A DNA stretch of 64,000 bases from NCBI RefSeq assembly GCF_044647545.1, contig NZ_CP172818.1, one strand, 5' to 3'. Source of the stretch: Escherichia coli. GTDB taxonomy: Bacteria > Pseudomonadota > Gammaproteobacteria > Enterobacterales > Enterobacteriaceae. The notes under the pieces were generated by a model. It saw only the letters and a list, made by a program, of their open reading frames with translations, made no database searches and had not been told where the DNA came from. This document shows positions 868 to 53,172 of the stretch, in pieces; the stretch's first letter is position 1, and each line of letters opens with the position of its first letter. Both the position numbers and the translations under genes were made by a program.

Positions 868-1431
868 ATGAACCTTGACGACAAATCGCTGTTTCTTGAC
901 GCCATGGAAGATGTCCAGCCGCTGAAACGTGCTACAGATGTCCACTGGCATCCAACGCGTAACCAACGTGCGCCGCAGCGTATCGACACGCTGCAACTTG
1001 ATAATTTCCTCACCACTGGATTTCTCGACATCATCCCGCTAACTCAGCCGCTGGAGTTTCGGCGGGAAGGGTTGCAACATGGGGTGCTGGATAAGCTGCG
1101 CAGTGGTAAATACCCGCAACAGGCGAGCCTGAATCTTTTGCGCCAGCCGGTGGAAGAGTGCCGCAAAATGGTGTTCAGTTTCATTCAACAAGCCCTGGCG
1201 GATGGTTTGCGTAATGTGCTGATTATTCATGGTAAAGGGCGGGAAGATAAATCGCATGCCAATATTGTCCGCAGCTATGTGGCGCGCTGGTTGACCGAAT
1301 TTGATGATGTCCAGGCATATTGTACCGCGCTACCGCATCATGGCGGCAGCGGGGCGTGTTACGTCGCACTACGTAAAACGGCACAGGCAAAGCAAGAAAA
1401 CTGGGAGCGCCACGCTAAGCGCAGTCGTTGA
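868..1431 (+). CDS. smrA: Smr-domain DNA endonuclease
   Basis: 187-aa ORF, Smr-like C-terminal region (LIIHGKG...); matches recalled YdaL/SmrA. Confidence 0.85.
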   Translation: MNLDDKSLFLDAMEDVQPLKRATDVHWHPTRNQRAPQRIDTLQLDNFLTTGFLDIIPLTQPLEFRREGLQHGVLDKLRSGKYPQQASLNLLRQPVEECRKMVFSFIQQALADGLRNVLIIHGKGREDKSHANIVRSYVARWLTEFDDVQAYCTALPHHGGSGACYVALRKTAQAKQENWERHAKRSR

Positions 1432-1451
1432 TCTCGAGACGCATCCGCGGC

Positions 1452-2684
1452 TTATGCCGCCAGCACGCGGTTGCGTCCATCATTTTTCGCCCGATACAAA
1501 GCATCATCAACGCGTTTAAACAGCTCATCGATGCTTTCATTTCCTTCGTGATGCGCCACACCAATGCTGACGGTAAAGCGTGGTAAGCCCGAAATACTCA
1601 CTTTTGCCACGCTTACGCGGATAGTTTCAGCCAGCGAAAGCGCGGTATCCAGTGGGGTTCTTGGTAGCAATAAGACAAACTCTTCGCCTCCCCAACGAAA
1701 CACCAAATCGCCTTTGCGAGCGCAACTTTCGAGGGTGCGGGCGAGGGCGCATAACACCTCATCACCTTTAGAATGCCCATAGAGATCGTTAATGTGTTTA
1801 AAACGATCGGTGTCGATGAGCAATAAGCTGTAATCCTGAGCGATGGCGAGGTGCTGCATTTGGCCAGGCTCGGTAATGTGATAAAACTGTCGCCGATTCA
1901 GTAATCCGGTCATCGCGTCATGGTGGGCAGCATGTTCCAGCTGCTCCTCCAGCCGTTTTTGCTCAGTAATATCATGCACAATACATAACATGAGCTTGTC
2001 GCCATAAATTTCAATCGGCCCAGCATAGGTCTGCACATGACGAGTCGAACCATCCGCCAATTTATGAACAAAATTCAAAGGCTTATGGCCACCGGGTAAA
2101 TGCGAAATTTCATGCATGATAGGCATGACGCGTCGCCCGAGCATATTTATTTCCCAGGTATGTTTCTGGCACATCGTTTCATGGTTATAACCATAGAAAT
2201 TGAGCGCGGCGAGGTTAGCATCAACGATTTGGCCATCTCGTGAGGGGTCAATCAACAACATTGGTGCAGAGTTAGTCAGAAAAAAGCGCGCATAAAAACC
2301 TTGTTTTTTGCGCTGATAATTTGCCGAGCGACTGGCTTTTAAACCCAGCGTTGCCGGCGCTTCGATACCTTCGAAAATAATCACCGGTTCTGTTTCTGTC
2401 AGCTCTCGCAAAACAAGCCGACAGCTTAATGCTGTTTCCTCTTCTTTACGTTGAACGGTGAGGATTTCGATAATATCGTGTTGGTTTTGCAGATCGGAGA
2501 GGTATTTCGGCAGTTCTTTTTGTGAGGAGACGGAATAGGGACCGGTTCGTAGCTGACTAAACGTGAGGTCTTGCATCAACAGTCGCGCCGCGCTGTTGGC
2601 ATAAATTAACTGTTCCTCAAAGGGCGAAACGATCCAGACAGGACTGGTGAGTAAGTCCAGGGTATTGAAGTTGTGCGTAATCAT
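1452..2684 (-). CDS. dgcM: Diguanylate cyclase with PAS domains
   Basis: ORF 1452..2744; GGEEF motif (RWGGEEF) visible; likely start at internal ATG (MITHNF) giving ~410 aa. Confidence 0.85.
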   Translation of the reverse strand: MITHNFNTLDLLTSPVWIVSPFEEQLIYANSAARLLMQDLTFSQLRTGPYSVSSQKELPKYLSDLQNQHDIIEILTVQRKEEETALSCRLVLRELTETEPVIIFEGIEAPATLGLKASRSANYQRKKQGFYARFFLTNSAPMLLIDPSRDGQIVDANLAALNFYGYNHETMCQKHTWEINMLGRRVMPIMHEISHLPGGHKPLNFVHKLADGSTRHVQTYAGPIEIYGDKLMLCIVHDITEQKRLEEQLEHAAHHDAMTGLLNRRQFYHITEPGQMQHLAIAQDYSLLLIDTDRFKHINDLYGHSKGDEVLCALARTLESCARKGDLVFRWGGEEFVLLLPRTPLDTALSLAETIRVSVAKVSISGLPRFTVSIGVAHHEGNESIDELFKRVDDALYRAKNDGRNRVLAA

Positions 2685-2917
2685 TGAGATCCCGTTATTT
2701 TTATCAATTTTTGTTGCTATCCGATCGCAAAAAAGCCACGTCATATGATCAGATAATTCTGATAATGATAGACGCTATTTAACACTTCACACGGTTTGTA
2801 TACGGAAAAGCATTTTGCTTTTTGTATTCAATTTAGACAGAATTTTATTAATCATTTCAGGGTAATGGGGTGATGAGATGTTGCGTAACAGGGCCAGAAG
2901 GCTAGACTACAAAATAA

Positions 2918-3922
<1,005 letters not shown>

Positions 3923-4111
3923 CAAAAGCAATTTCTCCGGGATTCTGTATACAAAAACGCCGTAAAGTTTGAGCGAAGTCAATAAACTCCCTACCTATTC
4001 AGGGCAATATCTCTCTCGCAGGTGAATGCAACGTCAAGCGATGGGCGTTGCGCTCCATATTGTCTTACTTCCTTTTTTGAATTACTGCATAGCACAATTG
4101 ATTCGTACGAC

Positions 4112-4139
4112 GCCGACTTTGATGAGTCGGCTTTTTTTT
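4112..4139 (+). terminator. Rho-independent terminator-like hairpin with T-run
   Basis: gccgactttgatgagtcggc followed by tttttttt. Confidence 0.5.
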
Positions 4140-4196
4140 GCCTGTTATTTATCAGCGTCTACCCTTTAAGAGTCCACCCAATGACCGGAGGGAAAT

Positions 4197-4370
4197 ATGA
4201 CGACACTTATTTATTTGCAAATTCCTGTCCCTGAACCGATTCCTGGCGATCCTGTTCCAGTACCAGATCCGATCCCTCGCCCGCAACCCATGCCTGACCC
4301 ACCACCCGATGAAGAACCGATTAAATTGTCGCATCGTGAGCGTAGATCTGCGAGGATACGCGCCTGCTAA
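4197..4370 (+). CDS. Candidate small proline-rich protein (57 aa), below the ORF-track size cutoff
   Basis: ATG preceded by ggaggg; translation MTTLIYLQIPVPEPIPGDPVPVPDPIPRPQPMPDPPPDEEPIKLSHRERRSARIRAC; immediately upstream of dbpA. Confidence 0.35.
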   Translation: MTTLIYLQIPVPEPIPGDPVPVPDPIPRPQPMPDPPPDEEPIKLSHRERRSARIRAC

Positions 4371-4399
4371 CTTTGCGTCGATGACCACGAGAATAGATT

Positions 4400-5773
4400 G
4401 TGACCGCTTTTTCTACCCTGAATGTTTTGCCTCCCGCCCAACTCACGAACCTTAATGAGTTGGGTTATTTAACTATGACGCCGGTGCAGGCTGCCGCGCT
4501 TCCGGCGATCCTTGCCGGAAAAGATGTTCGCGTGCAGGCGAAAACCGGCAGCGGCAAAACGGCGGCTTTTGGCCTCGGCTTGTTACAGCAAATTGATGCG
4601 TCGCTATTTCAAACCCAGGCTTTAGTGCTGTGTCCTACGCGTGAACTGGCGGATCAGGTGGCAGGTGAATTGCGTCGGCTGGCGCGTTTTCTGCCAAATA
4701 CCAAAATTTTGACGTTGTGCGGTGGTCAACCGTTCGGTATGCAGCGTGATTCGTTGCAACATGCGCCGCATATTATCGTGGCAACGCCGGGCCGTTTGCT
4801 GGATCACTTGCAAAAAGGCACGGTATCACTGGATGCGCTGAATACTTTGGTGATGGATGAGGCCGACCGCATGCTGGATATGGGATTTAGCGATGCCATT
4901 GATGATGTCATCCGTTTTGCGCCTGCATCTCGACAGACGCTTCTGTTTTCGGCAACCTGGCCGGAAGCCATCGCCGCAATCAGCGGAAGAGTGCAGCGCG
5001 ATCCTTTAGCGATTGAAATTGACTCAACAGATGCTCTGCCACCTATTGAACAACAATTTTATGAGACATCCAGCAAAGGCAAAATTCCGTTGTTGCAACG
5101 GTTATTAAGTTTGCATCAGCCATCCTCTTGCGTGGTGTTTTGCAATACCAAAAAAGATTGCCAGGCTGTCTGCGACGCGCTGAATGAAGTAGAGCAAAGT
5201 GCATTGTCGTTACACGGCGATCTGGAGCAACGTGATCGCGATCAGACCCTGGTACGTTTTGCTAACGGTAGCGCCCGTGTACTGGTTGCGACTGATGTTG
5301 CTGCGCGTGGTCTGGATATTAAATCGCTTGAGCTGGTGGTGAACTTTGAGCTGGCGTGGGACCCTGAAGTTCATGTACATCGCATCGGCCGTACAGCGCG
5401 TGCAGGAAATAGCGGTCTGGCGATCAGTTTCTGTGCCCCGGAAGAAGCACAGCGGGCCAATATCATTTCTGACATGTTGCAGATAAAACTTAACTGGCAA
5501 ACGCCGCCAGTTAATAGTTCCATTGTGCCGCTGGAAGCAGAAATGGCAACGTTATGTATCGATGGCGGGAAAAAAGCCAAAATGCGCCCGGGTGATGTAT
5601 TAGGTGCGCTGACAGGAGACATCGGGCTTGATGGCGCAGATATTGGCAAAATCGCCGTGCATCCGGCGCATGTCTATGTCGCGGTGCGTCAGGCTGTTGC
5701 TCATAAAGCATGGAAACAGTTACAGGGCGGGAAGATTAAAGGAAAAACGTGCCGGGTGCGGTTATTAAAATAA
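4400..5773 (+). CDS. dbpA: DEAD-box ATP-dependent RNA helicase DbpA
   Basis: 457 aa; GTG start; Walker A AKTGSGKT, DEAD box (VMDEAD), SAT motif. Confidence 0.92.
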   Translation: MTAFSTLNVLPPAQLTNLNELGYLTMTPVQAAALPAILAGKDVRVQAKTGSGKTAAFGLGLLQQIDASLFQTQALVLCPTRELADQVAGELRRLARFLPNTKILTLCGGQPFGMQRDSLQHAPHIIVATPGRLLDHLQKGTVSLDALNTLVMDEADRMLDMGFSDAIDDVIRFAPASRQTLLFSATWPEAIAAISGRVQRDPLAIEIDSTDALPPIEQQFYETSSKGKIPLLQRLLSLHQPSSCVVFCNTKKDCQAVCDALNEVEQSALSLHGDLEQRDRDQTLVRFANGSARVLVATDVAARGLDIKSLELVVNFELAWDPEVHVHRIGRTARAGNSGLAISFCAPEEAQRANIISDMLQIKLNWQTPPVNSSIVPLEAEMATLCIDGGKKAKMRPGDVLGALTGDIGLDGADIGKIAVHPAHVYVAVRQAVAHKAWKQLQGGKIKGKTCRVRLLK

Positions 5774-5817
5774 TGAAATGTTGAATTGCCGGGTGCAAGA
5801 GTAAACATCTTATTCGG

Positions 5818-5895
5818 GATTGCCGGATGCGACGCTGGCCGCGTCTTCTCCGGCCTCCATAAGAGTAGCCCGATAAGCTTGCGCATCGGGCGCTA
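5818..5895. repeat. REP/BIME-like extragenic palindromic element
   Basis: gccggatgcgacgctggccgcgtcttctccggcc-type palindromes between convergent dbpA and ttcA. Confidence 0.45.
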
Positions 5896-5901
5896 TCCGG
5901 G

Positions 5902-6837
5902 TTATTTCACTTCAACCACATTCAGTCGTAACTCATCCAACTGATTTTCATCTTCTTCAGGCTGCCAACCCGCCGGTTGTAGAGGGATCTCTTCGCGATC
6001 AAACGCCAGATCACCCCCGTTAACCACTTCAGAACCGTGGGTAATGCCTTTGAAATCGAACAGGTTGGTATCGCACAGATGCGACGGCACCACATTCTGC
6101 ATCGCGCTGAACATCGTCTCGATACGCCCCGGATAACGTTTATCCCAGTCACGCAACATGTCAGCAATCACCTGACGTTGCAGGTTAGGCTGTGAACCGC
6201 ACAGGTTGCACGGAATAATCGGGAACGCTTTTGCATCGGCAAAGCGCTGAATATCTTTCTCGCGGCAGTAGGCCAGCGGACGAATAACGATATGTTTGCC
6301 ATCATCGCTCATCAGTTTCGGAGGCATACCTTTCATCTTGCCGCCGTAGAACATATTTAAGAACAACGTTTGCAGGATATCGTCACGATGGTGACCCAGC
6401 GCGATCTTCGTCGCTCCCAGTTCCGTTGCGGTACGGTAAAGAATTCCGCGACGAAGACGAGAACACAGTGAGCAAGTGGTTTTGCCCTCCGGAATCTTCT
6501 CTTTCACGATACCGTAAGTGTTCTCTTCCACAATCTTGTACTCAACGCCCAGTTTTTCAAGATACTCGGGCAGAACGTGTTCCGGGAAGCCCGGTTGTTT
6601 TTGATCGAGGTTGACAGCCACCAGCGAAAAATTGATTGGCGCGCTTTGCTGCAAATTGCGCAGAATCTCCAGCATGGTATAGCTGTCTTTACCCCCTGAG
6701 AGGCAAACCATGATGCGATCGCCTTCTTCAATCATATTGAAGTCAGCAATGGCTTCGCCCACATTACGACGCAGACGTTTTTGTAATTTGTTCAGGTTGT
6801 ATTGTTCTTTCTTACTAATTTCTTGATTTTCTTGCAT
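5902..6837 (-). CDS. ttcA: tRNA 2-thiocytidine biosynthesis protein TtcA (5' end formed by the prophage junction)
   Basis: 311 aa; PP-loop SGGKDS and CxxC motifs; first ~16 codons lie in the att repeat. Confidence 0.9.
6788..6830. repeat. Prophage attachment-site core repeat, integrase-proximal copy
   Basis: 43-bp exact direct repeat ttgttcaggttgtattgttctttcttactaatttcttgatttt, also at 29887..29929. Confidence 0.75.
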
Positions 6838-6888
6838 TATTTCAGTTCTCTGGTACTAAATGGGGCAAATTGGGGGCAAACTTTGCAA

Positions 6889-8119
6889 CTACGATAACCG
6901 CGCATTCAACATGGCTATCTGTTCGTCGTTCATGTCATCAATCCACATACCGTAAATTTCATACACCATCTGCGCAGTTTCATGCCCCATTTGGCTGGCT
7001 ATAAATGCCGGGTTCGCTCCTGCCGTCAACAGCCAGCAGGCAAAAGTATGCCGCGTATGGTACGGATTACGGCGGCGAATACCAGCACGTTTTACTGCTG
7101 CATTCCACCTTGCCCCCAAACTGCTTACCGAGTAATAAGGTTTTTGTTTTCCGTTACACACCCTGGGCATGAAAACAAAATGCAGTTTTTGCTTTTCGGT
7201 TCTGCATACTGCCGATAATAAAAGGTGACGACTTTTGCGATGATGCCCGGTCAGTTTGTATTGCTCCTTCAGTGCTTCAAGAGCAGGCTGCAGTAGTGTT
7301 ACTGTTCGGATCCCGGCATTTGTTTTTGGGGGACCGAACATATCGAGCCCTCGTCAGGTTTCTTCTGACATTCACTATTCCCTTTTCGAGATCCACATCC
7401 TCCCACGCCAGAGCTGCCAGTTCCCCGTGACGAAGTCCTGAGTAAACGGCAAAGTTCCACAAGTTCTCGCTATCTCCTTTTTCACTTTCCATTAATGCAT
7501 TGAATTCTGTTTTAGATAACGGATCAGGCTTTATTCTGTTCGCTGTAATTTTTTTACTCCTTCAAATGGTTTGGTTGATATAAATCCGACTGATACGCAA
7601 AACGCAACAGCGAACAGAGCAAGGCAATATCGTATCAACTGTGCGCACGGTTCTTCCTTTTTTGTTGGATCTTGGATTATCCAGGTAAAGCGTTTCTCCA
7701 TGCAGCAGTTCATTCCGGTAGTTTAAGATATCGCTATAACGAATATGTGATATCGGGGTACTTTCACAAATTATTATTCTGAGTGTTTTTAATTGTGATT
7801 TCGTTTTCTTCATTGTGTTTGTTGTTAACTCTGTCTCTTTAATTTTTGTCCAGATATCACAAAGCTCTCCGAACGTTTTTATGACTCTCGTTGTCACCAT
7901 TTTTGCCCCAGTGCTGGACTGGGGAAAACGTCTTAAATACTCAAATTCACCGGAGTTTATTTCATGAACTATCAGCGCTCTTAAATTTCCGGCCTTTTTA
8001 ATATTACTGTTTGTAATCTCCCAGCCTTTTAATGTTTCCCGACATCGTTTTCCTCGAAACATGAACCAGATGCGAATGTATCTACCTCTAATCTCGACAC
8101 CTGTTGGTAATTTAGACAT
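6889..8119 (-). pseudogene. intR: Tyrosine integrase, frame-disrupted in this sequence
   Basis: Integrase-like translation split over ORFs 6889..7341, 7277..7492, 7531..7713 and 7562..8119 in different frames. Confidence 0.75.
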
Positions 8120-8120
8120 A

Positions 8121-8336
8121 TCATGAGTCTTTGATAAACTGATTTATCTTTGGATAGTTGTACCAGATAATCCCTCGTTTGCTGTCTGGCTTACCTAAAG
8201 GAGATACTCGTTTGAAGTGGAAGCCCTCCACCCAACAGTTCTGGCGGTATGCTTCAATTTGTCTGGCCCCCAGACCAGTGCGAAGCATCAGGCCGTATTC
8301 AACCATCCACTCTTCATTAAAGATTACTTGTGCCAT
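8121..8336 (-). CDS. xisR: Excisionase-like protein
   Basis: 71-aa ORF ([10 protein letters not shown]...) immediately upstream of integrase, overlapping arrangement. Confidence 0.8.
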
Positions 8337-8414
8337 CGCATCACCTCTGGCAGGCGCCAATGTTAGACTGAAATTGACGCCCGATGTTGATTATTAATAA
8401 TCAGCTATGAAGTT

Positions 8415-8624
8415 TTAATTTGAATACAATGCAATTCTCGAGGACTGAAGTTTCTCGCAATTAAAATTTATCAGTTTTACTTTCTGCTCTCTGGAAACGC
8501 CTGCTTCTTTTTTACCTGAGAGCATTTTTTCGCATTCTGATTTCGTTAGTTTAGATTTTGAATATCTTGTCCAGTTAGTAGGAGTGCCACCTTCCTTTTC
8601 AATAGTGGCGGTAATTTTATACAT
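8415..8624 (-). CDS. ydaC: Rac prophage small protein YdaC
   Basis: ORF 8415..8696; likely start at internal ATG (MYKITATIEKEGG). Confidence 0.65.
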   Translation of the reverse strand: MYKITATIEKEGGTPTNWTRYSKSKLTKSECEKMLSGKKEAGVSREQKVKLINFNCEKLQSSRIALYSN

Positions 8625-8811
8625 GAACACCTCCATTATTATTTCCAGTGGTTCGTTTATTCCATCTTTCGAGTGCTTCTTTTTCACTTCCACCATAACC
8701 GGTTCGGGATTCGCATCCGTTACACTTCGCTCGGTAATATCCTGAAATGGCTTTCACCGTTACTGATGGACAACCACAAAATGGACATGGTTTAACATTG
8801 TCATATCTCAT
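8617..8811 (-). CDS. ralR: Restriction alleviation protein / type I toxin RalR
   Basis: 64-aa Cys-rich product (MRYDNVKPCPFCGCPS...CNGCES) within ORF 8617..8850. Confidence 0.85.
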   Translation of the reverse strand: MRYDNVKPCPFCGCPSVTVKAISGYYRAKCNGCESRTGYGGSEKEALERWNKRTTGNNNGGVHV

Positions 8812-8867
8812 AATTTTTCTCATAAAAAATATTTCAAGTTGGCGGTGCATTACACCGCCAGGCTGAA

Positions 8868-9677
8868 TTATTCCTCTGAATTATCGATTACACTGTATTC
8901 CCCGGTTAATACAGAGGAATCTGCAGGATCGATTGTCAGTGGTTCCTTTTCATCCATTGATACTGCACGCTGGATCTCAATTGATACGGGCAAATATTTG
9001 AACAGGCGACGAATAGCCGTTTTCTTTGCCATTTCTTCCCAGTGAGTTACCCACGGCCCGTTATTACCAGCTTTACTCAGGCTGCGCACCAGCTCAATCT
9101 GTTTGCGCGTCATAACTTCAAACTGAGTACCTCCGTCTTTCAGTCTTGCGACAGCATAGACGTGGGTAACCGGGGCATCTTCGTTTTCTCCCGGGCGGTG
9201 TATTAACTTTTCATCAAGGCCAAATTCGAAGCTAAACTCGTCACCTTCACGGACAACACGGGCTGACAGGCTGGCGATTTGACCAGAACGGCGAGCCAGA
9301 TCAATCATGCCGCGATAGCCAATGATTAGCTGAACGTTCTTTTTACCGCTCTTTTCGTTTTTATTACCAAAAGGCAGTAAATATGCATGACCGAGGGCGC
9401 TACCTGGCTCAAGTCCGAGCTGTGAACACTGTACGATCGCACTGACAAAACTCATAGTGTCACAGTTTCCTAACGCCGGAACTTTACGAATTTCTGTGGT
9501 GGCGATACGGATCATACGTTCAGCCGTCATATGGCGTGGAAGAGCTGCTGCCAGTTGCTCTTTCATTGATGGCTGGTTAATAAAACTAATCACGTCGCTA
9601 TTTTTAACTGCTGCTGGTGCACGGTTTCCCTGAGTTTTTTGCAGATCGGCTTTTGCGATTGGTGGTTGCTTAGTCAT
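8868..9677 (-). CDS. recT: Recombinase RecT (single-strand annealing protein)
   Basis: ORF 8868..9734; recalled RecT N-terminus [12 protein letters not shown] at internal ATG. Confidence 0.9.
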
Positions 9678-12312
9678 TTGCATATTCCTTAGCCCAGCGG
9701 GGCAGTGATAATGTCTTAATAGCTGGCCATTCATCGGTATTCAGGCAGTCAGACAGGGTTCGCAGATTGCGGTGATATTCCTGTTGACCTGCCAGTTTTG
9801 CTTCTTCGCCCATCATGAAAATTTCAACCGGATAACGTCCGCATTCAATAGTTGTGCTGGCAACCAGAAAAACGAAAGTTGGCTGCACTCCAAACTGTGC
9901 TTCATAACCGTCACTGTAGAATGCATCCTGAACGTGATAGCGGTAGTCGTAATAAGCGGTTTTGAATCGTTGAATATCCGCCGTAGTTTTCACGTCCATG
10001 ATCCAGTGAAATTCAGGGATAATTTTGTCCGGACGGCACCGACACAAAATTCCTGTTTCAGGATCTTCCCAGTAAATTGATGATTCAGCGTGTCCGGCGC
10101 TTTCAACAAGCCATTGCCCCAGCGGCAAAGCCATAACGCTTTGATACATGAGTTCAATTTTCCGGCCTTCTTCCGCAGTGATAACCGTTTTTCCTGTGCT
10201 TGCGCATTCCATCAGAAACGCTTTCTCTTCTTCTTTTCCGGCGTTTGTACGGCGGTTAAATTCAGGTGCTACGATAAAGCGGTTACTGAATTCTTCCGGT
10301 TCAAGTACCCGGCAGTGGAAAGCAGTTCCTAAATCGAGCGTTTTTGTCTTTGTGGTGTCCACGGGGGCATTTTTACGCCACAAATATAGTGCCGGAGTAT
10401 CAGCAATGTCATCGAGCTGAGACTTACTGATACCGGGACCCGCGTGGTAATTCTCATTCGAAATTCCGTAATAAATACCTGGCTCTATGTCTTCTACGAT
10501 TAAGGGATCTGACGCCTCGCCAGTTTCACTATCGCTGGCATGATGCTGATTGCTGCCAGTGTTCTCCTTGTGCTGATGCGCAGTGCCTTCCATTTCCTCC
10601 AGATCATTTTTCTGAACTTCAGGCTGATTCTCTCCATCGAATATTTCCTGGTATGTTGCGTCACCCATCACCGCACCACAATCAGGGCAGTTGCCGCCAC
10701 CGCTCTGACCGCAGGCGGTGCAGATCTTTTCCGGTTCCTGTTGCACTACTGGTTCAGGTTGTTTCGTTTCTGGCTCGTTTTGTTGCGTATTTGGGCTGTT
10801 TTGTTCCGCTTTCTGGTCGTTCTGTTCCGTTTCTTGCTGGTTCTGGTTCACAGAATCGCGGGTCTGGATCCCCTTAATCCATTTCGGATCATTCGGGTCG
10901 CTAATCCCTTCAACAAATTCACCACGTGATACTGCAAGCAGTTCATCGTCATCGACAGGATTTTTTGATGGAATGTTTTTCCGGGCTTCATGGAGTTCTG
11001 CCCGCAGTTCCTGATATTTCGCATCAACAGAATTTACCTGTGACTGAGCATCCAGCGGCTGCGTGTCCTGATGATGTTCAGTTGCGTCCGGTTCCATTGT
11101 TTCAGCCTCTCCCTGTTCAACTGCCGTTGTTCCAGATGGTTGCGGTTTTTCTTCATCATCCTGTTTTCCTTCTTCTGTTACTCGCTGCGGCATCGGGGCA
11201 GAGGAGCGACCGCAGGCAATATCCACGATTTCCGGATCAGGGTTGGCATGATCGGTTTCAGTCAGTACTTTGTTCAGATATTCAGTGACGTGCGCGGGGA
11301 TGACCTCGATCCCAATTGGTGCTTCTTTTACGGACGCAACCACGATGGCGCGGGAATAATCCAGCCCGCCAGGCATGGTGATGAATTTGTCGCGGAAAAC
11401 AGAAAAGGGCGGTTTATTTTCAGCGATAATTTCCTCAATGCGTTTAGCGTGTGCCGGATGAAGGTTATAGATGTCCAGATCCATTGAACGGGCCAGTACG
11501 CCAGTGGCTACGTCGCGCGCCAGTGACGTCAGATCGTGTACGAAACCTTCGCCGCGATCGGTGAGGTTTCCGCCGCCAGCATTAGCACCGGAAGCCGTGC
11601 GAGTGATGTGTGAAACACGATTACCCTTCATCCACTCTTTTGTCAGCAGTCCTCGATCGGTGTAGTCAGCGTTCAGGTATGCTTCGAAAAAAGCAGTTAT
11701 CAGTCCCAGGTTTGAATTACCAGGATTAGGGAAAACTTTGTCAGTGTCACGAACCAGTTTGTGGAGTTCGCGAATTTCCAGCGGGTCGAGCAGGCTGGTT
11801 TTGTGGGAAACAGCCAGGGCAGTAACAGCCGGTAGTTCTTCAGCCCGAGCAATGTGTAATGCCTGGAGTCCGTCGCGTGAAACGTGCGTTACCGGTTTTT
11901 CGCTGCCGTGTTGAGCAAGCCAACGAATGGGCAGTTCCTGGCCAGAAATTGGGAGTAGCATATTCTCCTCAATCTCAGTCATGTCTTCGCCGTTGACGTT
12001 GGTATTGCCTTGATAGTGAGCGTTGTCTGGTGCTGCTCCCGGTTTTAGTTCCCATGTCATGGAGTCTTTGCTGAGTTGATAGCGTTCACTCCAGGTAAAA
12101 TCGATCTCACCTTCAGCGGGCAGGTCATTAACGACAGGAAAATTCGTGGCAACAGCTTTAAAATAGCTGCTCAGTTTTTTACCTGACTTAACGATCAGGT
12201 AGTCCAGAGTGGCACAGGTCGATTCAAAATCGTTGCTTGCCCACAGGACGACGTCAGGTTCACCGGATGATTTTTTCGCTTTCCGTAACAGGAAGAGTGG
12301 TTTTGTGCTCAT
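9670..12312 (-). CDS. recE: Exonuclease VIII RecE
   Basis: 880-aa ORF ending ...[11 protein letters not shown]; low-complexity acidic/Gln-rich middle region; overlaps recT start. Confidence 0.9.
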
Positions 12313-22408: not shown

Positions 22409-22524
22409 TGGCGGGGCCATCTGTACGCGTGAATGAATGGTTCAGTGCTTATGCGATGGCGGGTGTGGCTTACAGCCGTGTTTCGACGTTCTCCGGGGAT
22501 TATCTCCGCGTAACTGACAACAAG
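22407..22524 (+). pseudogene. lomR: Lom-family outer membrane protein, internal fragment upstream of IS5
   Basis: Frame MAGPSVRVNEWFSAYAMAGVAYSRVSTFSGDYLRVTDNK runs into IS5 left end. Confidence 0.5.
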
Positions 22525-29882: not shown

Positions 29883-29936
29883 TTACTTGTTCAGGTTGTA
29901 TTGTTCTTTCTTACTAATTTCTTGATTTTGCGACAT
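29883..29936 (-). pseudogene. ttcC: Remnant of displaced original ttcA 5' end
   Basis: ATG at ~29936 reads [17 protein letters not shown] then stop at the att repeat boundary. Confidence 0.5.
29887..29929. repeat. Prophage attachment-site core repeat, distal copy
   Basis: Identical 43 bp to 6788..6830. Confidence 0.75.
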
Positions 29937-30111: not shown

Positions 30112-30627
<516 letters not shown>

Positions 30628-42435: not shown

Positions 42436-43932
42436 GTGATGACAGAGCCGCATGTAGCAGTATTAAGCCAGGTCCAACAGTTTCTCGATCGTCAACACGG
42501 TCTTTATATTGATGGTCGTCCTGGCCCCGCACAAAGTGAAAAACGGTTGGCGATCTTTGATCCGGCCACCGGGCAAGAAATTGCGTCTACTGCTGATGCC
42601 AACGAAGCGGATGTAGATAACGCAGTCATGTCTGCCTGGCGGGCCTTTGTCTCGCGTCGCTGGGCCGGGCGATTACCCGCAGAGCGTGAACGTATTCTGC
42701 TACGTTTTGCTGATCTGGTGGAGCAGCACAGTGAGGAGCTGGCGCAACTGGAAACCCTGGAGCAAGGCAAGTCAATTGCCATTTCCCGTGCTTTTGAAGT
42801 GGGCTGTACGCTGAACTGGATGCGTTATACCGCCGGGTTAACGACCAAAATCGCGGGTAAAACGCTGGACTTGTCGATTCCCTTACCCCAGGGGGCGCGT
42901 TATCAGGCCTGGACGCGTAAAGAGCCGGTTGGCGTAGTGGCGGGAATTGTGCCATGGAACTTTCCGTTGATGATTGGTATGTGGAAGGTGATGCCAGCAC
43001 TGGCAGCAGGCTGTTCAATCGTGATTAAGCCTTCGGAAACCACGCCACTGACGATGTTGCGCGTGGCGGAACTGGCCAGCGAGGCTGGTATCCCTGATGG
43101 CGTTTTTAATGTCGTCACCGGGTCAGGTGCTGTATGCGGCGCGGCCCTGACGTCACATCCTCATGTTGCGAAAATCAGTTTTACCGGTTCAACCGCGACG
43201 GGAAAAGGTATTGCCAGAACTGCTGCTGATCACTTAACGCGTGTAACGCTGGAACTGGGCGGTAAAAACCCGGCAATTGTATTAAAAGATGCTGATCCGC
43301 AATGGGTTATTGAAGGCTTGATGACCGGAAGCTTCCTGAATCAAGGGCAAGTATGCGCCGCCAGTTCGCGAATTTATATTGAAGCGCCGTTGTTTGACAC
43401 GCTGGTTAGTGGATTTGAGCAGGCGGTAAAATCGTTGCAAGTGGGACCGGGGATGTCACCTGTTGCACAGATTAACCCTTTGGTTTCTCGTGCGCACTGC
43501 GACAAAGTGTGTTCATTCCTCGACGATGCGCAGGCACAGCAAGCAGAGCTGATTCGCGGGTCGAATGGACCACCAGAGGTATTATGTTGCGCCAACGCTA
43601 GTGCGGTAAAATCCCGATGCTAAATTGCGCTTAACTCGTGAAGAGGTGTTTGGTCCGGTGGTAAACCTGGTGCGAGTAAGCGGTGGAAGAGGCGTTACAA
43701 CTGGCAAACGACACGGAATATGGCTTAACTGCCAGTGTCTGGACGCAAAATCTCTCCAGGCTCTGGAATATAGCGATCGCTTACAGGCAGGGACGGTGTG
43801 GGTAAACAGCCATACCTTGATTGACGCTAACTACCGTTTGGTGGGATGAAGCAGTCAGGAACGGGCCGTGATTTTGGCCCCGACTGGCTGGACGGTTGGT
43901 GTGAAACTAAGTCGGTGTGTGTACGGTATTAA
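42436..43932 (+). pseudogene. feaB: Phenylacetaldehyde dehydrogenase, 3' part frame-disrupted here
   Basis: Aldehyde dehydrogenase ORF stops at 43623 (395 aa); homologous sequence continues in another frame (43625..43849). Confidence 0.75.
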
Positions 43933-43952
43933 TATTGGTTCGCTAATTAAGT

Positions 43953-43979
43953 AAAAAACGGCACCTGGTGCCGTTTTTT
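43953..43979. terminator. Bidirectional rho-independent terminator between convergent feaB and tynA
   Basis: aaaaaacggcacctggtgccgtttttt (A-run, hairpin, T-run). Confidence 0.55.
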
Positions 43980-43991
43980 GTCTGAAAACAA

Positions 43992-46266
43992 TCACTTATC
44001 TTTCTTCAGCGCCCCTAGCGTTGGCGTTTCATAAAGAAGTTCCATGGTTTAAGCAGAGTATGTACCCATTCGGTCGGCATAATCGGCCACTCTTCAGCAC
44101 GGGCCACATGTGTGGTGCCGGTGGGTCATCCAGACAACGGCGTCGGTGTTGTCCAGCGACTCGTTATCTTTACTGTATTGTCCAAGACCGGTGTCATCAG
44201 TAGAACGGTTCAGGATATTTGCCTTCCGGGAAACGCTCGCCAGGATGATAACGCGTTACCCAGAAAGCTGCTTTGTCCATAAAGCTTAAACGATGATAGA
44301 TCCACTCATCCCAGGCGCCACTGGGCACCTTTTGCTACCGGGTGAGTACCGCCTGCATAAGGAATAATTTGATAGGAAACTGGATTGCCCATGCGGTTCT
44401 CTTTGTTGCGGGTTACTCAACAGACGAATCATGCCCCGGATCAAACTACGGCATCCTGTTCATTGCCGATGTTGTACTGATTAACTTGCATCAAGGTACT
44501 GGTGCGTCGGCCACCGGCAGTATTCGGTTTCCACTGGGTCCATCGCCACCAGGCTGTTATTCTCGCCATCTACATAAGGAATCGAGGCAGAAATTATCGA
44601 TCTGTTTGGTGTCAGTACCCACGATACTGTGATCGATAAGCGTGCCGTAGCGCGTGTCATCTTTCGCCGTCTCATCGTGCATGGTTTTCGCTTTAACACC
44701 TTTCACCGCTTCGATGCCCGTAGCACCGGCATCAATGCCAATAGTGCCGTTTTCATGGAAGATCCAGTCAAAATGTAGTCATAGTTACCCACTGTACTGA
44801 TCCAGCGCACCACTGACTCCCAGCATTCAGGTACTGACGTTGGGCTGGCCCATTTCCTGATGCTTATACTCCGGCCCGGCATAACGTTTCAAATACCGCG
44901 ATAGCGCGAGGATCTCCATCGGCACGCCAGTGTAGTCGGCGATGGTTTCATTAAGGAGCACTGCGTTAGACGGGGCATCTTTACCACGGCGAAATTGGTG
45001 AGGTTAGCGTGCCCATACCGTAGTCACCAGAGTCCAGATACGCTTTAAAGTACCAGCCAATATCCAGGATCACCGTAAGGCACAATAATGTCGCCGAGGA
45101 GAACCTTCGTGCATGACTTTGCGTTTGGTGCCGATATTGGTATATAGTCACGGTGGAGATCATAGGCCCGACGCGAGAGTTCATGCTGAGGTGAAAATCC
45201 CAGTTCCGCCAGTGAATAGTATCTCGCCAGTAATGGTGTAATTTTTACCTTCAGGCTCAATGATTTGCATAGGCTTGACTGCCGGAGCAACGCGGTCACG
45301 GCTATCAAATGGGCGTGCGGTCATTCACACGGAACTCCGGACCTTCTTCAATCTTAACGATTTTTTTCTGTTTCTGATCAACGACCGCCACCAGGTTTTC
45401 GATGGGATGTGCCCAGTAGTTCCATCGCCGACAGTCAAGATAGCTGATGACTTTGAGCAACCGGGCATCTTGTTTCAGGCCATCTTTACCATCGAAATAA
45501 CCTACGGTCAGCGGCGTGGTAATCACTTTTTTCGCATCAGTAATACCGCGTTTCTTCACGGCAGCGGCAAATTCTTCACTGTTGTTAATAATGTTCTGCA
45601 CACTGGCGAAATCATCCAGCAACACCATACCCGTGGCGTGTTTAATGGGTTCCAGGAGAGCAGTTTGTTGTTTTGCAGATCCACCACCGCTTCGATGATA
45701 TGTTTGCCGTCGAGCATAATGACGTCGGCTTTGCGCGGCTGGTCAACCGGTTTGTTTTCCAGCGCAAACGCCCAGACAGCTTCTTTATCTGGCGGTAGCA
45801 GGAGATCTCAGTAAAACAGGGTATTGGGTTTGAAGTCCCGCGGAAGCTTTAACAATTTCAACGGCCTGTTTAATTTCGTACCACAGTTCACGCATTAAGT
45901 GGGTGAGGGCGCTTTTATTACCTGAAAGGTTTGATCCAGACCGGACTGGAAAACATCGTTAATAAAGGTGTCGCAAAACCCAGGCCTTATTGTCTTTCAT
46001 ACGCTCCCGGCACTTGCAGTGCCAAGGTAGCCATTAACAATTGCTGTTTTGCGCACCAGGCTTCACTTTCACGTACGCGCCATCTTTAATCAGGGTAAAG
46101 ATCTGGGCGTAGTCGTCCCACTGCACATCGGCACCAAATTCTTTAAGCGTTTCATCCATTGGCACCATATGCGCTTCACCACCGTGGGCAAATACCGGCG
46201 CTTGCCAGGCGAAACTTAAGGCGACTGCCAACGCCAGGGTTGTTTTACGGGCAGAATCCGGAGAAA
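43992..46266 (-). pseudogene. tynA: Copper amine oxidase, heavily frame-disrupted here
   Basis: C-terminus GALKKDK at 43992; recognisable TynA-like fragments in ORFs 44481..44699, 44981..45184, 45305..45628, 46034..46315 in different frames. Confidence 0.7.
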
Positions 46267-46525
46267 GAGGGCTTCCAGTTATTAACCTCGTCAGATGTTG
46301 TGTTCTTGTTAGCAACCGCGCTCTGTGGGCGGTTTAGTCAGGTTCACATTATGAGTACTGATGCAAAGAAATCCTGCACCTCAGAGTTATTTGGCAGGTG
46401 TGCCCACTTTTTCATACAGTGGGTGCCCTGAAAATCAATGTACACATCATGCATAATGTGACAACGTCACAAAAGTTAGTGAAATGAAAAAGGGCAACTG
46501 TTCGGGCCGTTGCCCTTCATTCACC

Positions 46526-48563
46526 GATTAATCGACAAAATCACCATATCCTGGCCACCAGCGTCAGAATTGAATACAGCGCCACCGGGGTTTGATGCTG
46601 ATTGAATACCTCTACCGCCCATTCCACCACCTGTTGGTTTTTCTTCTGCGCTACGCTGTTTTTTCAGCGTCTTGCGCTTACAGGTGAGACGCACCTGGAT
46701 GGTATCGCCTGGCTTTACGGGTTCGATAAGCGCAAGTTTTCCAGCCCATAATTAGCAATGACCGGACCGACACCGGCATCGACAAACAGACCCGCAGAGC
46801 CGCAGAAAAAGCACAAAATACCCATGCACCACACGCTCACCGAAAATAGATTCGGCAGCAGCAGAATATTATCCATATGCGCATAGAAATAATCGCCGCT
46901 GAGGCAAGCAAAGTTAACAATATCGGCCTCTGTCATTGTGCGGCGGGAGTGGCAGGTATCCGCCTGGTTGTAGCTCCTCAAAATATTTGCGGAACGGATG
47001 AATACGATCTTCTTCGACTTTCGCACCACGCACCCACTGTTTACTGATAGCTGCAAGCATCGTCGGACTACCCTGAACAGCGGTTCGCTGCGTGTGATCC
47101 TTCACCCGCTCGTAAACCACCTAATTCTTCACCGCCTCCTGCGCGACCAGGCCCACCATGTAACAGTTGTGGCAGTCGGAGAGCCATGCCGGTGGATTCT
47201 TTTGCCGATTCCTCATTGAGGATCTGAATTCGCCCATGCGTACGTGCCGCGTCGGTAATAAACTGACGCGCAATTTGCGGATCAGCCGTCACCAGCGTTC
47301 CGCAAGGCTACCGCCGCCTGCACAAGCCAGTTGCAGAGCATGTCGCTGGTTTTGTGCTGGCATCAGCGTTGCGACAGGGCCAAAGGCTTCTGTTGCATGT
47401 ACCGCCGGTGTTTCATCCGGCTGCGGACAGTACAATAAGGTTGGCGGGAAAGAGCACCCGCAGCAGATAAATCCGCCTGACCACCGAGGCGAATCTCGCA
47501 TCCTGCAGCCAGCAATATGTTCACTTTTTCCTGCACATCGGCACGCTGCTCAGCATTTACCAGTGCGCCCATATTCACGCCTTCCTGAGCAGGATCACCG
47601 ACCACGACTTTCTGTAATCGCGCAACCAGGACGATTCACTGACAGCATTAACCAATGCCTGCGGCGCGATAATCCGCCGGATTGCCGTACATTTTTGCCC
47701 GGCTTTTGTGGTCATCTCACGCACAACTTCACGAATAAACAGCGCAAACTCCGAGTTAAATGCGGGTAACATCTTCGCCCAGTACGCAGCAGTTCAGGGA
47801 ATCAGCTTCCATAGTGAAGGGGATAGATTTGGCGACGATATTTGGCTGAACTCGCGGCGTCTCTGCAGGTCGCCGCTGACCCGTGAAAGTCACCACATCC
47901 TGGCTGTCCAGATAATCCAAAAGGTCGCCCGCACTACCGCAGATCAGACTAATTGCGCCTTCGGGAACAAGACCACTATCGACAATTGATTTCACCATCG
48001 CCTGAGTACGTTGGGCCGTCGCGGTAGCTGGTTTGATGATGGCTGGCATTCCGCCCAGCCACGTTGGTGCCAGCTTCCGGCGTTTTGCCACAGGGGAAGT
48101 TAAAGGCGTTAATATGCACTGCCACGCCTGAGCTTTGAGGTCAGTACATGGCGCGCGGCAAATCCACCTTCTTTCGATAAGGGGATCAATTCATCTTCCG
48201 GCCACAGCGTATCGTCGGCGGCTGCCCGGCTACCGAGGCTGGCGTAAGTAAATAACGTCCCAATGCCACCTTCAAATCAACCGAACTGTTGCCGCGTTGC
48301 GCCTGTTTGCGCAGAAAGACATAGAAGCGCTCTTTTTTCACTCAGCAGATGTTTAGCGACCGCTTTAAGCATCGCCGCACGTTCGATAAAGGTCATCACG
48401 CAGAAGCAGCCTTTTCAATGGCAAACTGCAACGGGCCACCGCCATATAGACCTTTCACTGGTCACTTCCCATAACGCCTCGCCGCTGATAGCGTGGTGAA
48501 TCAAACGGCTACCACCCCGCCAGACTGCCAGGTACCGGATAAGAAACTGGCTAACTGCTGCAT
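46526..48563 (-). pseudogene. paaZ: Bifunctional PaaZ, heavily frame-disrupted here
   Basis: N-terminus MQQLASFLSGTWQSG at ~48563; fragments spread over at least 7 short ORFs; terminator hairpin at ~46488..46516. Confidence 0.7.
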
Positions 48564-48796
48564 CGCTACTCTCCAGATGTTTCACATTTATGTTGCTAAT
48601 AGTTAAATTGCGAATCATAAAAAGCAAGGGTTCTTTTAACGAAATGTTAACTATGCAAATATGTATCACAACTGCGGAAAACATTAATGCACTGATAAAT
48701 AATGATTTATAAAAAATCGGGTGCGAAATCCGTCACAGTTCAAGCATACAAAATTTGTGATTTTAGTTAACCATTGTGTAACTTTCATAAACAATG

Positions 48797-48834
48797 TGAT
48801 TCGTGTTTTTAATTAATTCGCGAACTTGGAATCG
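48797..48834. promoter_or_regulatory. PaaX-operator-like inverted repeat in paaZ-paaA divergent promoter region
   Basis: TGATTC ... GAATCG half-sites ~26 nt apart. Confidence 0.35.
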
Positions 48835-48846
48835 TAAAGGTAATAA

Positions 48847-49773
48847 CATAACCCAAGAAGAACGCTTTGAGCAACGGATAGCCCAGGAAACGGCTATCGA
48901 GCCGCAGGACTGGATGCCAATAAGAAAGCACTGATCCGCCAGATTGGGCAGCATGCACACTGCAAATTGTGGTATGTTCCTGAAGGTAACTGGATCACTG
49001 GCGCACGACCTTTTGCAGCATAAAGCCATTCTGTTCGCCAAAGTCCAGGATGAAGCCGGTCATCGTCTGTATCTCTATAGCGCCGCCGAAACACTGGGCT
49101 GCACAGAGAAGACATCTACCAAAAAATGCTCAAACAACGATAAATATTCCTCCATCTTTAATTATCCGACATTGGTCTCCAGGGGCTGATATCGGCGTTA
49201 TCGGCTGGCTGGTGGAGTAGCAGCGATCGTCAATCAGGTGGCGTTATGTCGCACTTCTTATGGCCCGTATGCCAGAGCAATGGTGAAGATCTGCAAAGAA
49301 GAGAGTTTTTCACCAGCGTCAGGGGTTTGAAGCCTGCATGGCACTGGCGCAGGCGGCGAAGGACGCTCAAAAGCAGATGTTGCAAGACGCCATTAACCGT
49401 TTCTGGTGGCCAGCCTTAATGATGTTCGGGCCAAACGATGATAACTCGCCAAACAGCGCCAGAAGTACCGCCTGGAAAATCAAACGTTTCACCAACGACG
49501 AACTCGCCAGCGTTTCGTGGATAACACCATTCCACAGGTTGAAATGCTCGGTATGACCGTTCCTGACCCGGATCTGCATTTTGACACTGAAAGCGGTCAC
49601 TACCGCTTTGGTGGAAATCAACTGGCAGGAGTTTAACGAAGTAATTAACGGTCGCCGGAATTTGTAATCAGGAGAGGCTCGACGCCAAACGTAAAGCCTG
49701 GGAAGAAGGTACCTGGGTACGGGAAGCAGCGCTGGCCCATGCACAAAAACAACTTGCCCGTAAGGTCGCATAA
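48847..49773 (+). pseudogene. paaA: PaaA-like monooxygenase subunit, frame-disrupted, no ATG at expected start
   Basis: Frame begins ata-acc-caa (ITQEERFEQRIAQETAIEPQDW) then stops; later fragment in ORF 49338..49556. Confidence 0.65.
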
Positions 49774-49784
49774 GGAGATTCAAA

Positions 49785-50077
49785 ATGAGTAATGTTTATT
49801 GGCCGTTATACGAAGTTTACCCGTTCGTGGCAAACAGGGCTTATCACACCGCCATGTTGGCAGTTTTTACATGCTGCCGATGAGCGGATGGCACTGAAAA
49901 TGCCGGTGATTGTTACACCGTCGTAGCGAAGGATGTTCAATTTGGGTGGTGAAGGCGAGTGAAATTGTTGCCTCGCAACCGGAAGAACGCGGTGAATTTT
50001 TTGATCCGGCTGAAGCAAGGTCTATCGCCATCCAACGTTTTACACCATCCCTGATGGCATTCAACATGAGGTCGGAA
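49785..50077 (+). pseudogene. paaB: PaaB-like subunit, 3' end frame-disrupted
   Basis: MSNVYWPLYEV... start at 49785; later part in shifted frame (ORF 49910..50149). Confidence 0.6.
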
Positions 50078-50820
50078 ATGAATCAGTTAACGGCTTACAC
50101 CTTCGCCTGGGCGATAACTGCCTGGTGCTTCCAGCGGTTGGGTGAATAGTGCGGTCATGCACCGGAACTGGAAATCGATCTCGCACTGGCAAATATTGGA
50201 CTCGATTTATTAGGCCAGGCACGCAACTTCTTATCGTATGCCGCTGAATTAGCGGGAGAAGGCGATGAAGATACCCTGGCCTTCACCCCAACAAGCACCA
50301 GTTCAGCAACTTATTGTTGGTTGAACAGCCAAACGGCAATTTTGCCGACAACCGTCGCCAGTATTTCATCGATGCATGGCATGTGGCGCTCTTTACCATT
50401 CTGATGGAGAGCCGTGATCCGCGACTGGCGGCGATTTCTGCAAAGCGATTAAAGAAGCGCGTTATAGCCTGCGTTTTATTCGTGGCTGGCTGGAGCAACT
50501 GGGCAATGGTACTGACGTATACGGGCGAAAGAATGCCAGCAGGCCATCAACAAGTTGTGGCGTTTTACCGCCGAACTGTAGATGCCGACGAGATTGATAT
50601 TGCACTGAGTGAAGAGGGTATTGCGGTTGATCCACGCGCTTTTACGCGCAGCGTGGGAAGCCGAAGTTTTTGCCGGGATCAACGAAGCCACATTCAACGT
50701 ACCGCAGAGCAGGCGTATCGCACTGGCGGTAAAAAAGGACTGCATACCGAACACCTTGGACCCATGCTGGCAGAAATGCAGTTATTGTTTGAGCGTGTCT
50801 TGCCCGGTCAGCAATGGTAA
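50078..50820 (+). pseudogene. paaC: PaaC-like subunit, frame-disrupted
   Basis: MNQLTAY start at 50078; C-terminal part in ORF 50314..50820. Confidence 0.65.
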
Positions 50821-50834
50821 CAGAGGAGGTGGGT

Positions 50835-51325
50835 ATGCAACGTATCAGCCACCATTCCGCCGCCACAGGTTCATCCAGATATGGGCGCTACTGGGCGCGA
50901 TCCCGGACCGGAGATCCCGGTGCTGACCATTACCGATTTAGGCATGGTGCGTAATGTGACACAGATGGAAAGAATGGGTGATCGGCTTTACGCCGACTTA
51001 TTCCGGTTGTCCGGCAACGGAACGTTGATTGGCGCGATACGTGAGGCAATGACAACCCACGGGTTTACCCGTACGGTTGTGCTGCAACTCGACCCGGCAT
51101 GGACCACCGACTGGATGACCCCCGATGCCCGTGAGCGTCTGCGACGGTATGGCATTAGCCCGCCCGGCCGGAACAGTTGCCGGCCCATTTGCCGCCAGAA
51201 GTACGTTGCCCGCGCTGCGCCAGCGTCCATCCACACTTATCAGTGAATTTGGTTCCACGGCCTGCAAAGCATTGTACCGCTGCGATAGTTGCCACAAACC
51301 TTTCGATTATTTCAAATGTATTTGA
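50835..51325 (+). pseudogene. paaD: PaaD-like protein, frame-disrupted
   Basis: MQRISHH... start; fragments in ORFs 50881..51246 and 51125..51325 (ends ...FDYFKCI). Confidence 0.65.
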
Positions 51326-51332
51326 GGATGCC

Positions 51333-52406
51333 ATGACAACGTTTCATTCCTTAACAGTGGCAAAAGTGGGCCCGGAAACCCGTGATGCGGTGACCATTAC
51401 CTTTGCATGCAGCCTTTGCAGGAGGCGTATCACTTTCGCCCCGGTCAACATTTGACCTTAAAAGCCAGTCTTGATGGTGAAGAATTAGCCATTGTTCTCC
51501 ATTTGCCGCAGCTACCTGCCTGGCGAAATTAGTGTGGCGGTGAAAGCCATTGAAGGCGGACGTTTCTCCCGCTATGCCCGCGAACACATCCGCCAGGGTA
51601 TGACGCTGGAGGTCATGGTGCCGCAGGGGCATTTCGGCTATCAGCCACAGGCCGAACACCAGGGCCGCTATCTGGCTATTGCAGCAGGATCAGGTATTAC
51701 GCCAATGCTGGCGATTATCGCCACCACTTTCAAACCGAGCCTGAAAGTCAGTTCACCCTGATCTACGGTAACCGTACCAGCCAGAGCATGATGTTTCGCC
51801 AGGCACTGGCAGACCTGAAAGACAAATATCCTCAGCGTTTACAGTTGTTGTGCATTTTCAGTCAGGAAACCCTCGACAGCGATCTGCTTCACGGGCGTAT
51901 TGACGGTGAAAAATTACGTGGCTTGGGGCCTCGCTCATTGATTTTTCGTCTTTATGATGAGGCGTTTGCTTTGTGGTCCGGCGGCGATGATGGATGAGAC
52001 GGAAGCCGCCTTAAAAGCACTGGGAATGCCAGATAAAACCATTCATCTGGAGCGGTTTAATACGCCTGGCACGCGCGTCAAAGCGTCGCGTTAACGTGCA
52101 AAGTGACGGACAAAAGTGACTGTACGTCAGGATCGGCGGGATCGGGAAATCGTGCTTAATGCCGACGATGAAAGCATTCTCGATGCGGCATTGCGCCAGG
52201 GGGCTGATCTGCCCTATGCCTGCAAAGGCGGCGTCTGTGCGACCTGCAAATGCAAAGTGCTGCGTGGCGAAGTGGCGATGGAAACCAATTACAGTCTGGA
52301 ACCGGATGAACTGGCCGCAGGTTATGTGTTGAGTTGCCAGGCACTGCCGCTGACCAGCGATGTGGTGGTTGACTTTGACGCGAAGGGGATGGCATCAGCG
52401 AACTGA
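51333..52406 (+). pseudogene. paaE: PaaE-like reductase, frame-disrupted
   Basis: MTTFHSLTVAKV start at 51333; 2Fe-2S ferredoxin C-terminal fragment in ORF 52116..52406. Confidence 0.68.
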
Positions 52407-53172
52407 TCGTCAGCCGTCAGCAACAGGTGCTTGCTGCTGACCCTTAACCGTCCCGCCGCACGTAATGCGCTGAGAATAATGCCCTTCTGACGCAACTGGT
52501 AAATGAACTGGAAGCTGCGGCTACCGATAGCAGCATTTCGGTCTGTGTGATTACCGGTAATGCACGCTTTTTTGCCGCTGGGGCCGATCTCAACGAAATG
52601 GCAGAAAAAGATCTCGCGGCCACCTTAAACGATACACGTCCGCAGCTATGGGCGCGATTGCAGGCCTTTAATAAACCACTTATCGCAGCCGTCAATGGTT
52701 ACGCGCTTGGGGCGGGTTGCGAACTGGCATTGTTGTGCGATGTGGTGGTTGCCGGAGAGAACGCGCGTTTTGCGTTGCTTTTTACAGGAAATCACTCTCG
52801 GCATCATGCCAGGCGCAGGAGGAACGCAACGTTTAATCCGTAGTGTCGGTAAATCGTTAGCCAGCAAAAATGGTGCTGAGCGGAGAAAGTATCACCGCTC
52901 AGCAAGCACAGCAGGCCGGGCTGGTTAGCAACATCTTCCCCAGCGATTTAACCCTCGAATACGCCTTACAGCTGGCATCGAAAATGGCACGTCACTCGCC
53001 GCTGGCCTTACAAGCGGCAAAGCAAGCGCTGCGCCAGTCGCAGGAAGTGGCTTTGCAAGCCGGACTTGCCCAGGAGCGACAGTTATTCACCTTGCTGGCG
53101 GCAACAGAAGATCGTCATGAAGGCATCTCCGCTTTCTTACAAAAACGCACGCCCGACTTTAAAGGACGCTAA
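52389..53172 (+). pseudogene. paaF: PaaF-like enoyl-CoA hydratase, frame-disrupted
   Basis: Crotonase motifs split between ORFs 52547..52843 and 52870..53172. Confidence 0.68.

Follow-up and report, generated by a model that had tools for sequence, protein, structure and literature searches.

The integrase gene of the Rac prophage in this Escherichia coli record raises a question that is easily put: when a gene can be read only in pieces, has the gene decayed in the organism, or has its sequence been damaged in the making of the assembly? In K-12, IntR (b1345) is a lambda-type tyrosine integrase that acts with XisR at attL and attR (PMC4632033), XisR serving as the Rac excisionase and the attachment site lying in ttcA (Liu et al. 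2015, PMC4632033). The window (the whole stretch of DNA analysed, 64,000 nucleotides) carries smrA, dgcM, zntB, dbpA and ttcA in its 5′ part, followed by the Rac prophage with its broken integrase gene.

The Rac Integration Module and Its Borders

Comparison of annotations gives the gene order ttcA, intR, xisR, rcbA, ralR, recT, recE in the window and in K-12 alike. The module comprises intR and xisR, an attL at the 5′ end of ttcA and a matching attR, all of which are present:

5902..6837, minus strand: ttcA, the host gene with the Rac attachment site, intact, 311 aa (ORF list)
6788..6830, no strand: attL, left copy of a 43-bp exact direct repeat, TTGTTCAGGTTGTATTGTTCTTTCTTACTAATTTCTTGATTTT (repeat comparison)
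6889..8119, minus strand: intR, the Rac prophage tyrosine integrase gene, broken (ORF list, K-12 annotation, alignment and three-frame translation)
7562..8119, minus strand: intR fragment ORF, 185 aa (ORF list)
7531..7713, minus strand: intR fragment ORF, 60 aa (ORF list)
7277..7492, minus strand: intR fragment ORF, 71 aa (ORF list)
6889..7341, minus strand: intR fragment ORF, 150 aa (ORF list)
8121..8336, minus strand: xisR (ydaQ), the Rac excisionase gene, intact (K-12 annotation transferred by alignment)
29887..29929, no strand: attR, right copy of the same 43-bp repeat (repeat comparison)

The prophage spans ~23.1 kb between attL and attR, and it resembles the Rac of K-12 in that attL, attR and xisR are all intact; xisR, contained in ORF 8121..8360, is identical to its K-12 counterpart. 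The att sites do differ in one respect, as the exact match between the two arms is limited to the first 26 bp in K-12 and extends to 43 bp in the window. The window ttcA/attL departs from K-12 at positions 6814, 6815 and 6822, where the attL arm equals the attR copy, and it therefore encodes, unlike K-12, a TtcA N-terminus other than MQENQQITKK, a hybrid of that sequence and the MSQNQEISKK of TtcA′, the post-excision form (Liu et al. 2015, PMC4632033). Exactly this TtcA protein is found on 19 public contigs, including those of several complete genomes in which the 411-aa integrase is intact. Because of these contigs, and because the three bases equal the attR copy, we rejected the idea that the differences at 6814, 6815 and 6822 belong to the damage described below; judged from such matches, this form of attL and of the TtcA N-terminus is a natural variant.

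Reading Frames and Catalytic Residues

An earlier note on this DNA had identified the region as the Rac integrase gene with a frame broken several times across four ORFs, and had given K-12 a single intact intR of ~411 aa. All of this is borne out by the K-12 annotation and by alignment: intR lies between ttcA and xisR in both genomes, the K-12-type reference is one intact gene of 1236 nt (411 aa), the window gene is 1231 nt long, all four ORFs were recovered, and three-frame translation confirms that every frame is required to trace the integrase sequence. The alignment of 6889..8119 to K-12 intR that the note had proposed as a check confirmed the breakage and gave 13 substitutions and 7 indels. 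Thus the window gene, although identical to K-12 intR outside 7204-7632, is 5 bases shorter and lacks a continuous 411-aa ORF. Against the annotated intR of more than 1,100 genomes the fragments reach 95.5% DNA identity, and are on that comparison not chance ORF noise.

It is the 7 small indels within 7204-7632 that make IntR readable solely by hopping across three frames. Relative to K-12, the changes are −1 at 7204, −3 at 7228 and +1 at 7231, then +1 at 7348 and −1 at each of 7538, 7585 and 7632. The three single-base deletions at 7632, 7585 and 7538, which fall within 95 nt, jointly bring back the original frame, although the segment that they shift contains a stop codon, so that ORF 7562..8119 ends at 7562. 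Past the +1 at 7348 the remainder of the gene is out of frame and uncompensated.

Intact IntR homologues, including those of the E. coli IntR cluster, carry an arm DNA-binding domain (PF12167) and a phage integrase domain (PF00589), and the frame-corrected window protein is homologous to this tyrosine recombinase (phage integrase) family; the fragments give weak tyrosine-recombinase matches in NCBIfam. As written, the catalytic residues do not lie on one polypeptide. GLRHGE is encoded in ORF 7277..7492, while PPKT, HTRHT, GHE and the tyrosine of YEIY are encoded in ORF 6889..7341, in another frame; we take these motifs, from what is generally known of tyrosine recombinases, to supply Arg-I, Lys, His-x-x-Arg, His/Trp and Tyr, respectively. 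On this reading of its motifs, the window sequence as written encodes no functional integrase.

Eight residues are changed by substitution (Y164D, Q217D, Q219E, K223N, I258R, H303Y, E305Q and G307C), mostly at positions conserved among relatives down to ~65% identity, and the conserved positions affected belong to the motifs NYI, GQSQNxWKF and HHREYG. The 16 relatives read have none of the eight variant residues.

Could such a gene nevertheless work, as a split or recoded integrase produced by programmed frameshifting or from separately translated domains? The return to frame after three −1 deletions is what one might cite in favour of this idea. It is at odds with the stop codon in the shifted segment, with the uncompensated +1 at 7348 that parts Arg-I from the other catalytic residues, and with changes that strike conserved residues in an arrangement seen in no other genome compared, and we regard it as scarcely credible.

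Frameshift-truncated IntR is also encountered in other public assemblies. One such protein, P0063 (281 aa, from the Logan assemblies), enters past GLRHGE the alternative frame of window ORF 7277..7492 (...YVRSPKNKC...).

Distribution of the Changes within intR

All the changes fall within one short stretch of the gene:

7204..7632, no strand: degraded block in intR, with 20 private events, namely 13 substitutions, 5 deletions and 2 insertions (alignment to K-12)

At 20 events in 429 bp, the block differs from K-12 at a rate of 4.66%. The events are gathered in clusters (7204-7231, 7345-7350, 7454-7474, 7538, 7585 and 7622-7632), forming patches of 6-28 bp with perfectly K-12-like sequence in between; one variant patch reads GGAGATAGCGAGAACTTGTGGAACTTT. 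On either side the differences from K-12 stop altogether: there are zero in 6823-7203 (381 bp) and zero in 7633-10499 (2,867 bp), where ~150 events would be expected at the rate of the block. Indels account for one event per about two substitutions (a substitution:indel ratio of 1.9), and the dispersion index is 2.07. The substitutions are distributed over the three codon positions as 6:1:6, and transitions and transversions stand at 6:7. The flanking core genes present a different picture against K-12, with a strong third-position bias (7:2:78 in nifJ and 10:0:46 in ydbH) and zero indels. Codon positions, transition ratio and the many indels, so unlike those of the flanking core genes, thus mark the intR changes as unconstrained.

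These figures bear directly on the possibility that intR is a genuine pseudogene, in which the 13 substitutions and 7 indels are real and abolish functional IntR, leaving the prophage unable to excise despite intact attL, attR and xisR. There are reasons to take this possibility seriously: none of the ORFs as given holds all the catalytic residues; Rac is a defective, cryptic prophage, and an integrase lost from such an element would be no biological surprise; public data contain IntR proteins that are truncated or frameshifted, such as P0063; and short homopolymer runs, in which slippage is also a real mutational event, are the site of four of the six 1-bp indels. The window gene does share with the decayed integrases of cryptic prophages that it is a broken tyrosine recombinase gene whose defective prophage still has its att sites intact. 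Genuine decay, however, would be expected to go with divergence of the neighbouring DNA and with sharing by related strains, whereas the neighbours here are 100% K-12; neither linked neutral divergence nor sharing by related genomes was found for intR. With 20 private events in 429 bp set beside more than 3 kb of unchanged prophage DNA, a genuine origin implies that mutation ran locally at hundreds of times the background rate. Moreover, a ratio of about one indel to two substitutions, the indels being of both kinds, greatly exceeds what is usual in bacterial pseudogenes. Judged from the alignment, the distribution of the changes does not fit gradual decay.

Absence of the Variants from Other Genomes

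If the damage had been inherited, traces of it might be sought in related alleles. The damaged part of intR was found in ~1,865 complete E. coli genomes, among which the best match is 95.5%, to the K-12 allele, and all the matches span 486 bp where the window has 481 bp. None of the 20 changes is present in these genomes, a further point against a genuine pseudogene. The same emerges from an alignment of five alleles: those of K-12, FDAARGOS_497, REL606, O157 and MEI7 are all intact, are increasingly diverged and share none of the window variants, and at the sites where intR is naturally polymorphic the window has the K-12 state. An exact 41-mer across the patch at 7202-7242 had zero matches in genome contigs and metagenome contigs, and look-ups of the exact 185-aa and 150-aa fragment proteins returned no matches.

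Changes that are private to one genome could still have come from elsewhere, through recombination or gene conversion in which short patches of intR were overwritten from the diverged and decayed integrase of another prophage or species. The patchy layout, with variant stretches of 6-28 bp amid K-12-like sequence, is suggestive of such an exchange, and recE and stfR in the same window carry mosaic foreign patches that remain in frame. A donor was therefore sought. None was found for the variant patches in 5,426 complete E. coli genomes, searched at the DNA level in both near and distant modes, in 50,697 phage records, or among the protein relatives of IntR that were inspected after a search of 5.8 billion proteins. 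That search placed the frame-corrected protein at 97% identity to the E. coli IntR cluster; identity drops to 72% for the next family, in which all eight variant residues are missing. A diverged paralogue or donor was accordingly rejected as the origin of the patches. A donor that had once been functional should also have left a third-position bias and a kept frame, and the intR patches have neither. Taken together, this makes an origin by gene conversion highly improbable.

A Second Degraded Block

The earlier note had not mentioned a second stretch of the window, far from the prophage integrase, that is degraded in much the same manner:

43572..52866, no strand: second degraded block, comprising the 3′ end of feaB, tynA, paaZ and paaA-paaF (alignment to K-12)

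Here 478 events in 9295 bp, made up of 288 substitutions and 190 small indels against K-12, amount to 5.14%, and no ORF exceeds 200 aa. The indels, which are ~40% of the events, are almost all of 1-3 bp; the edges are sharp and the block lies inside DNA that is 100% identical to K-12. Side by side, the intR block and this one have event rates of 4.66% and 5.14%, substitution:indel ratios of 1.9 and 1.5, and dispersion indices of 2.07 and 2.03. By these measures, the two blocks carry the same error signature. That a 9.3-kb block of core metabolic genes should share it points to a process that has nothing to do with integrase biology, which is again contrary to what a genuine pseudogene would predict. 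With all of this in view, we consider a genuine intR pseudogene unlikely, and evolutionary decay, on the pattern of the changes, a very unlikely origin of the damage.

The best match of the second block among the 5,426 E. coli genomes is 95.7%, and the haplotype that underlies it is BS-04-like rather than K-12, with 79 shared SNPs versus 1; on account of this underlying haplotype, the block appears to have a separate origin as well.

Real changes could in principle be produced at such density by a localised mutation shower, which would have had to introduce ~5% events into bounded tracts of 429 bp and 9.3 kb while leaving their neighbours untouched. We consider this most improbable. Naive, uniform mutation in silico is likewise an unlikely source, as transitions and transversions in the large block stand at ~1.4, the dispersion index is ~2, and there is a modest enrichment in homopolymers.

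A closer resemblance is to the assembly or consensus errors of draft genomes, which share with the window private, clustered indels of 1-3 bp mixed with substitutions, sharp bounds and perfect neighbours. The presence in the window of a second block with the same statistics on another haplotype adds to this likeness, as does the intR of another draft, L008 (GCA_027273915.1, contig JAPXCL010000012.1, ~4400-4760 in the orientation of the window). This draft has its own single-base intR deletions, corresponding to window positions 7328, 7423, 7478 and 7658, and has no integrase gene called. Aligned with the window it disagrees at 87 columns, and it was rejected as a candidate source of the window sequence. 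Its deletions, being different ones, indicate that breaks of assembly type do occur in intR in public data, and L008 is probably an independent case of the gene being broken by assembly errors. The likeness to draft-genome errors is incomplete in that only about half of the 1-bp indels of the large block fall in homopolymer runs, which is not the textbook profile of homopolymer errors.

A Mosaic of Strain Haplotypes

The setting of the two blocks can be considered next, since at least three strain haplotypes are pieced together across the window. The stretches 1-6800, 29734-41505 and 59242-59968 are ~100% of the FDAARGOS_497 type and ~2% diverged from K-12, while Rac (outside the patches described below), feaR-paaX and ydbA::IS2 are K-12-identical. 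The FDAARGOS_497-type genome itself is without the feaB-paaK genes, with feaR and paaX surviving only in part, and its annotation shows no ydbA after paaY; the points at which the window switches haplotype coincide with the endpoints of these deletions. Natural recombination would not be expected to give such a mosaic, whereas a mixed-strain, reference-assisted or gap-filled assembly would. A mosaic with its switches at deletion endpoints suggests that the assembly is chimeric, mixed-strain or reference-assisted.

Small private clusters of indels also occur at or near the block junctions, at 59923/59956 in paaY and at 62800-62820. The paaY ORF (59379-60038) encodes 219 aa versus 196 aa, with a frameshifted tail at the C-terminus; it has 1-base deletions at 59923 and 59956, near the haplotype junction at ~59968, and the exact 219-aa protein had no match in a protein look-up. 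At 62800-62820, a tight cluster of small indels with one substitution interrupts the otherwise K-12-identical ydbA/IS2, and may be a junction artefact or a difference at the IS boundary.

Within Rac there are other departures from K-12, of a different kind. The recE gene (ORF 9670..12312) has an in-frame divergent patch at 10500-10830 and encodes 880 aa, compared with 866 aa in K-12. Part of the patch is like the recE alleles of STEC prophages and another part has no good match, 91.7% being the highest full-length value for a 501-bp query; a protein look-up with the exact 880-aa RecE gave no match. Further patches rich in substitutions relative to K-12 occupy 18151-18303, 22383-22488, 23739-24322 and 26000-27150 (the rzpR region, the IS5/lom region and stfR), and the substitutions in stfR are third-position-biased (27:23:95). 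To judge by their sequence, the patches of recE (10500-10830), 18151-18303, 22383-22488, 23739-24322 and stfR look like natural mosaic alleles and not like errors. Given the natural-looking alleles of recE, 18151-18303 and stfR, the Rac prophage of the window does not just reproduce the K-12 reference. A pure fill-in from K-12 would fit the K-12-identical islands, but was rejected as it leaves the recE and stfR alleles and the BS-04-like paa haplotype unexplained.

The Most Probable Origin of the Broken Gene

What, then, happened to intR? The changes, their privacy, clustering and sharp bounds, the second block and the mosaic can all be read directly from the sequence, and it is from these that we infer a technical cause. 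An artefact is favoured because the changes are private, because they are clustered in K-12-identical DNA, and because their signature is common to the 9.3-kb block. The stretch 7204-7632 is thus very probably a localised patch of low-quality sequence in a chimeric or multi-haplotype assembly, and the real intR intact. The 429-bp stretch would be low-accuracy sequence with ~5% errors, a third to two fifths of them indels of 1-3 bp, within an assembly that combines two or more haplotypes or data sources. Such a patch might arise from a poorly covered or unpolished long-read segment, from gap filling, or from a multi-strain (chimeric or reference-assisted) consensus.

The earlier note had left the choice between a genuine defect and a localised error open. 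The private and clustered changes and the shared signature favour the error and speak against the defect, and it is the second degraded block and the multi-strain mosaic, neither of which had entered that note, that decide the question. Its statement that the prophage cannot excise presupposes a genuine sequence, which we judge unlikely.

Consequences for Reading This Record

Excision of lambdoid prophages depends on their integrase, and IntR would likewise be required for Rac to excise. Support for the requirement comes from Rac itself, whose excision was induced when the excisionase and the integrase were overproduced (PMC4632033). If the damage were genuine, the intact att sites and XisR could therefore not excise the prophage without IntR. 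Taken at face value, the frameshifts would lead to an annotation of Rac as a prophage that has lost its integrase function and can no longer excise, and about ten genes of phenylacetate and amine catabolism would also be called pseudogenes. The evidence from the window suggests that both degraded blocks arose technically, in a multi-haplotype assembly, and to the extent that they did, conclusions about gene content, pseudogenes or prophage mobility drawn from this record are unsafe. There is no novel biology in either outcome: a genuine defect would be an ordinary event, one more inactivated integrase in a cryptic prophage. The practical value of the finding would instead be that of a quality warning on the record, especially for the 9.3-kb block.
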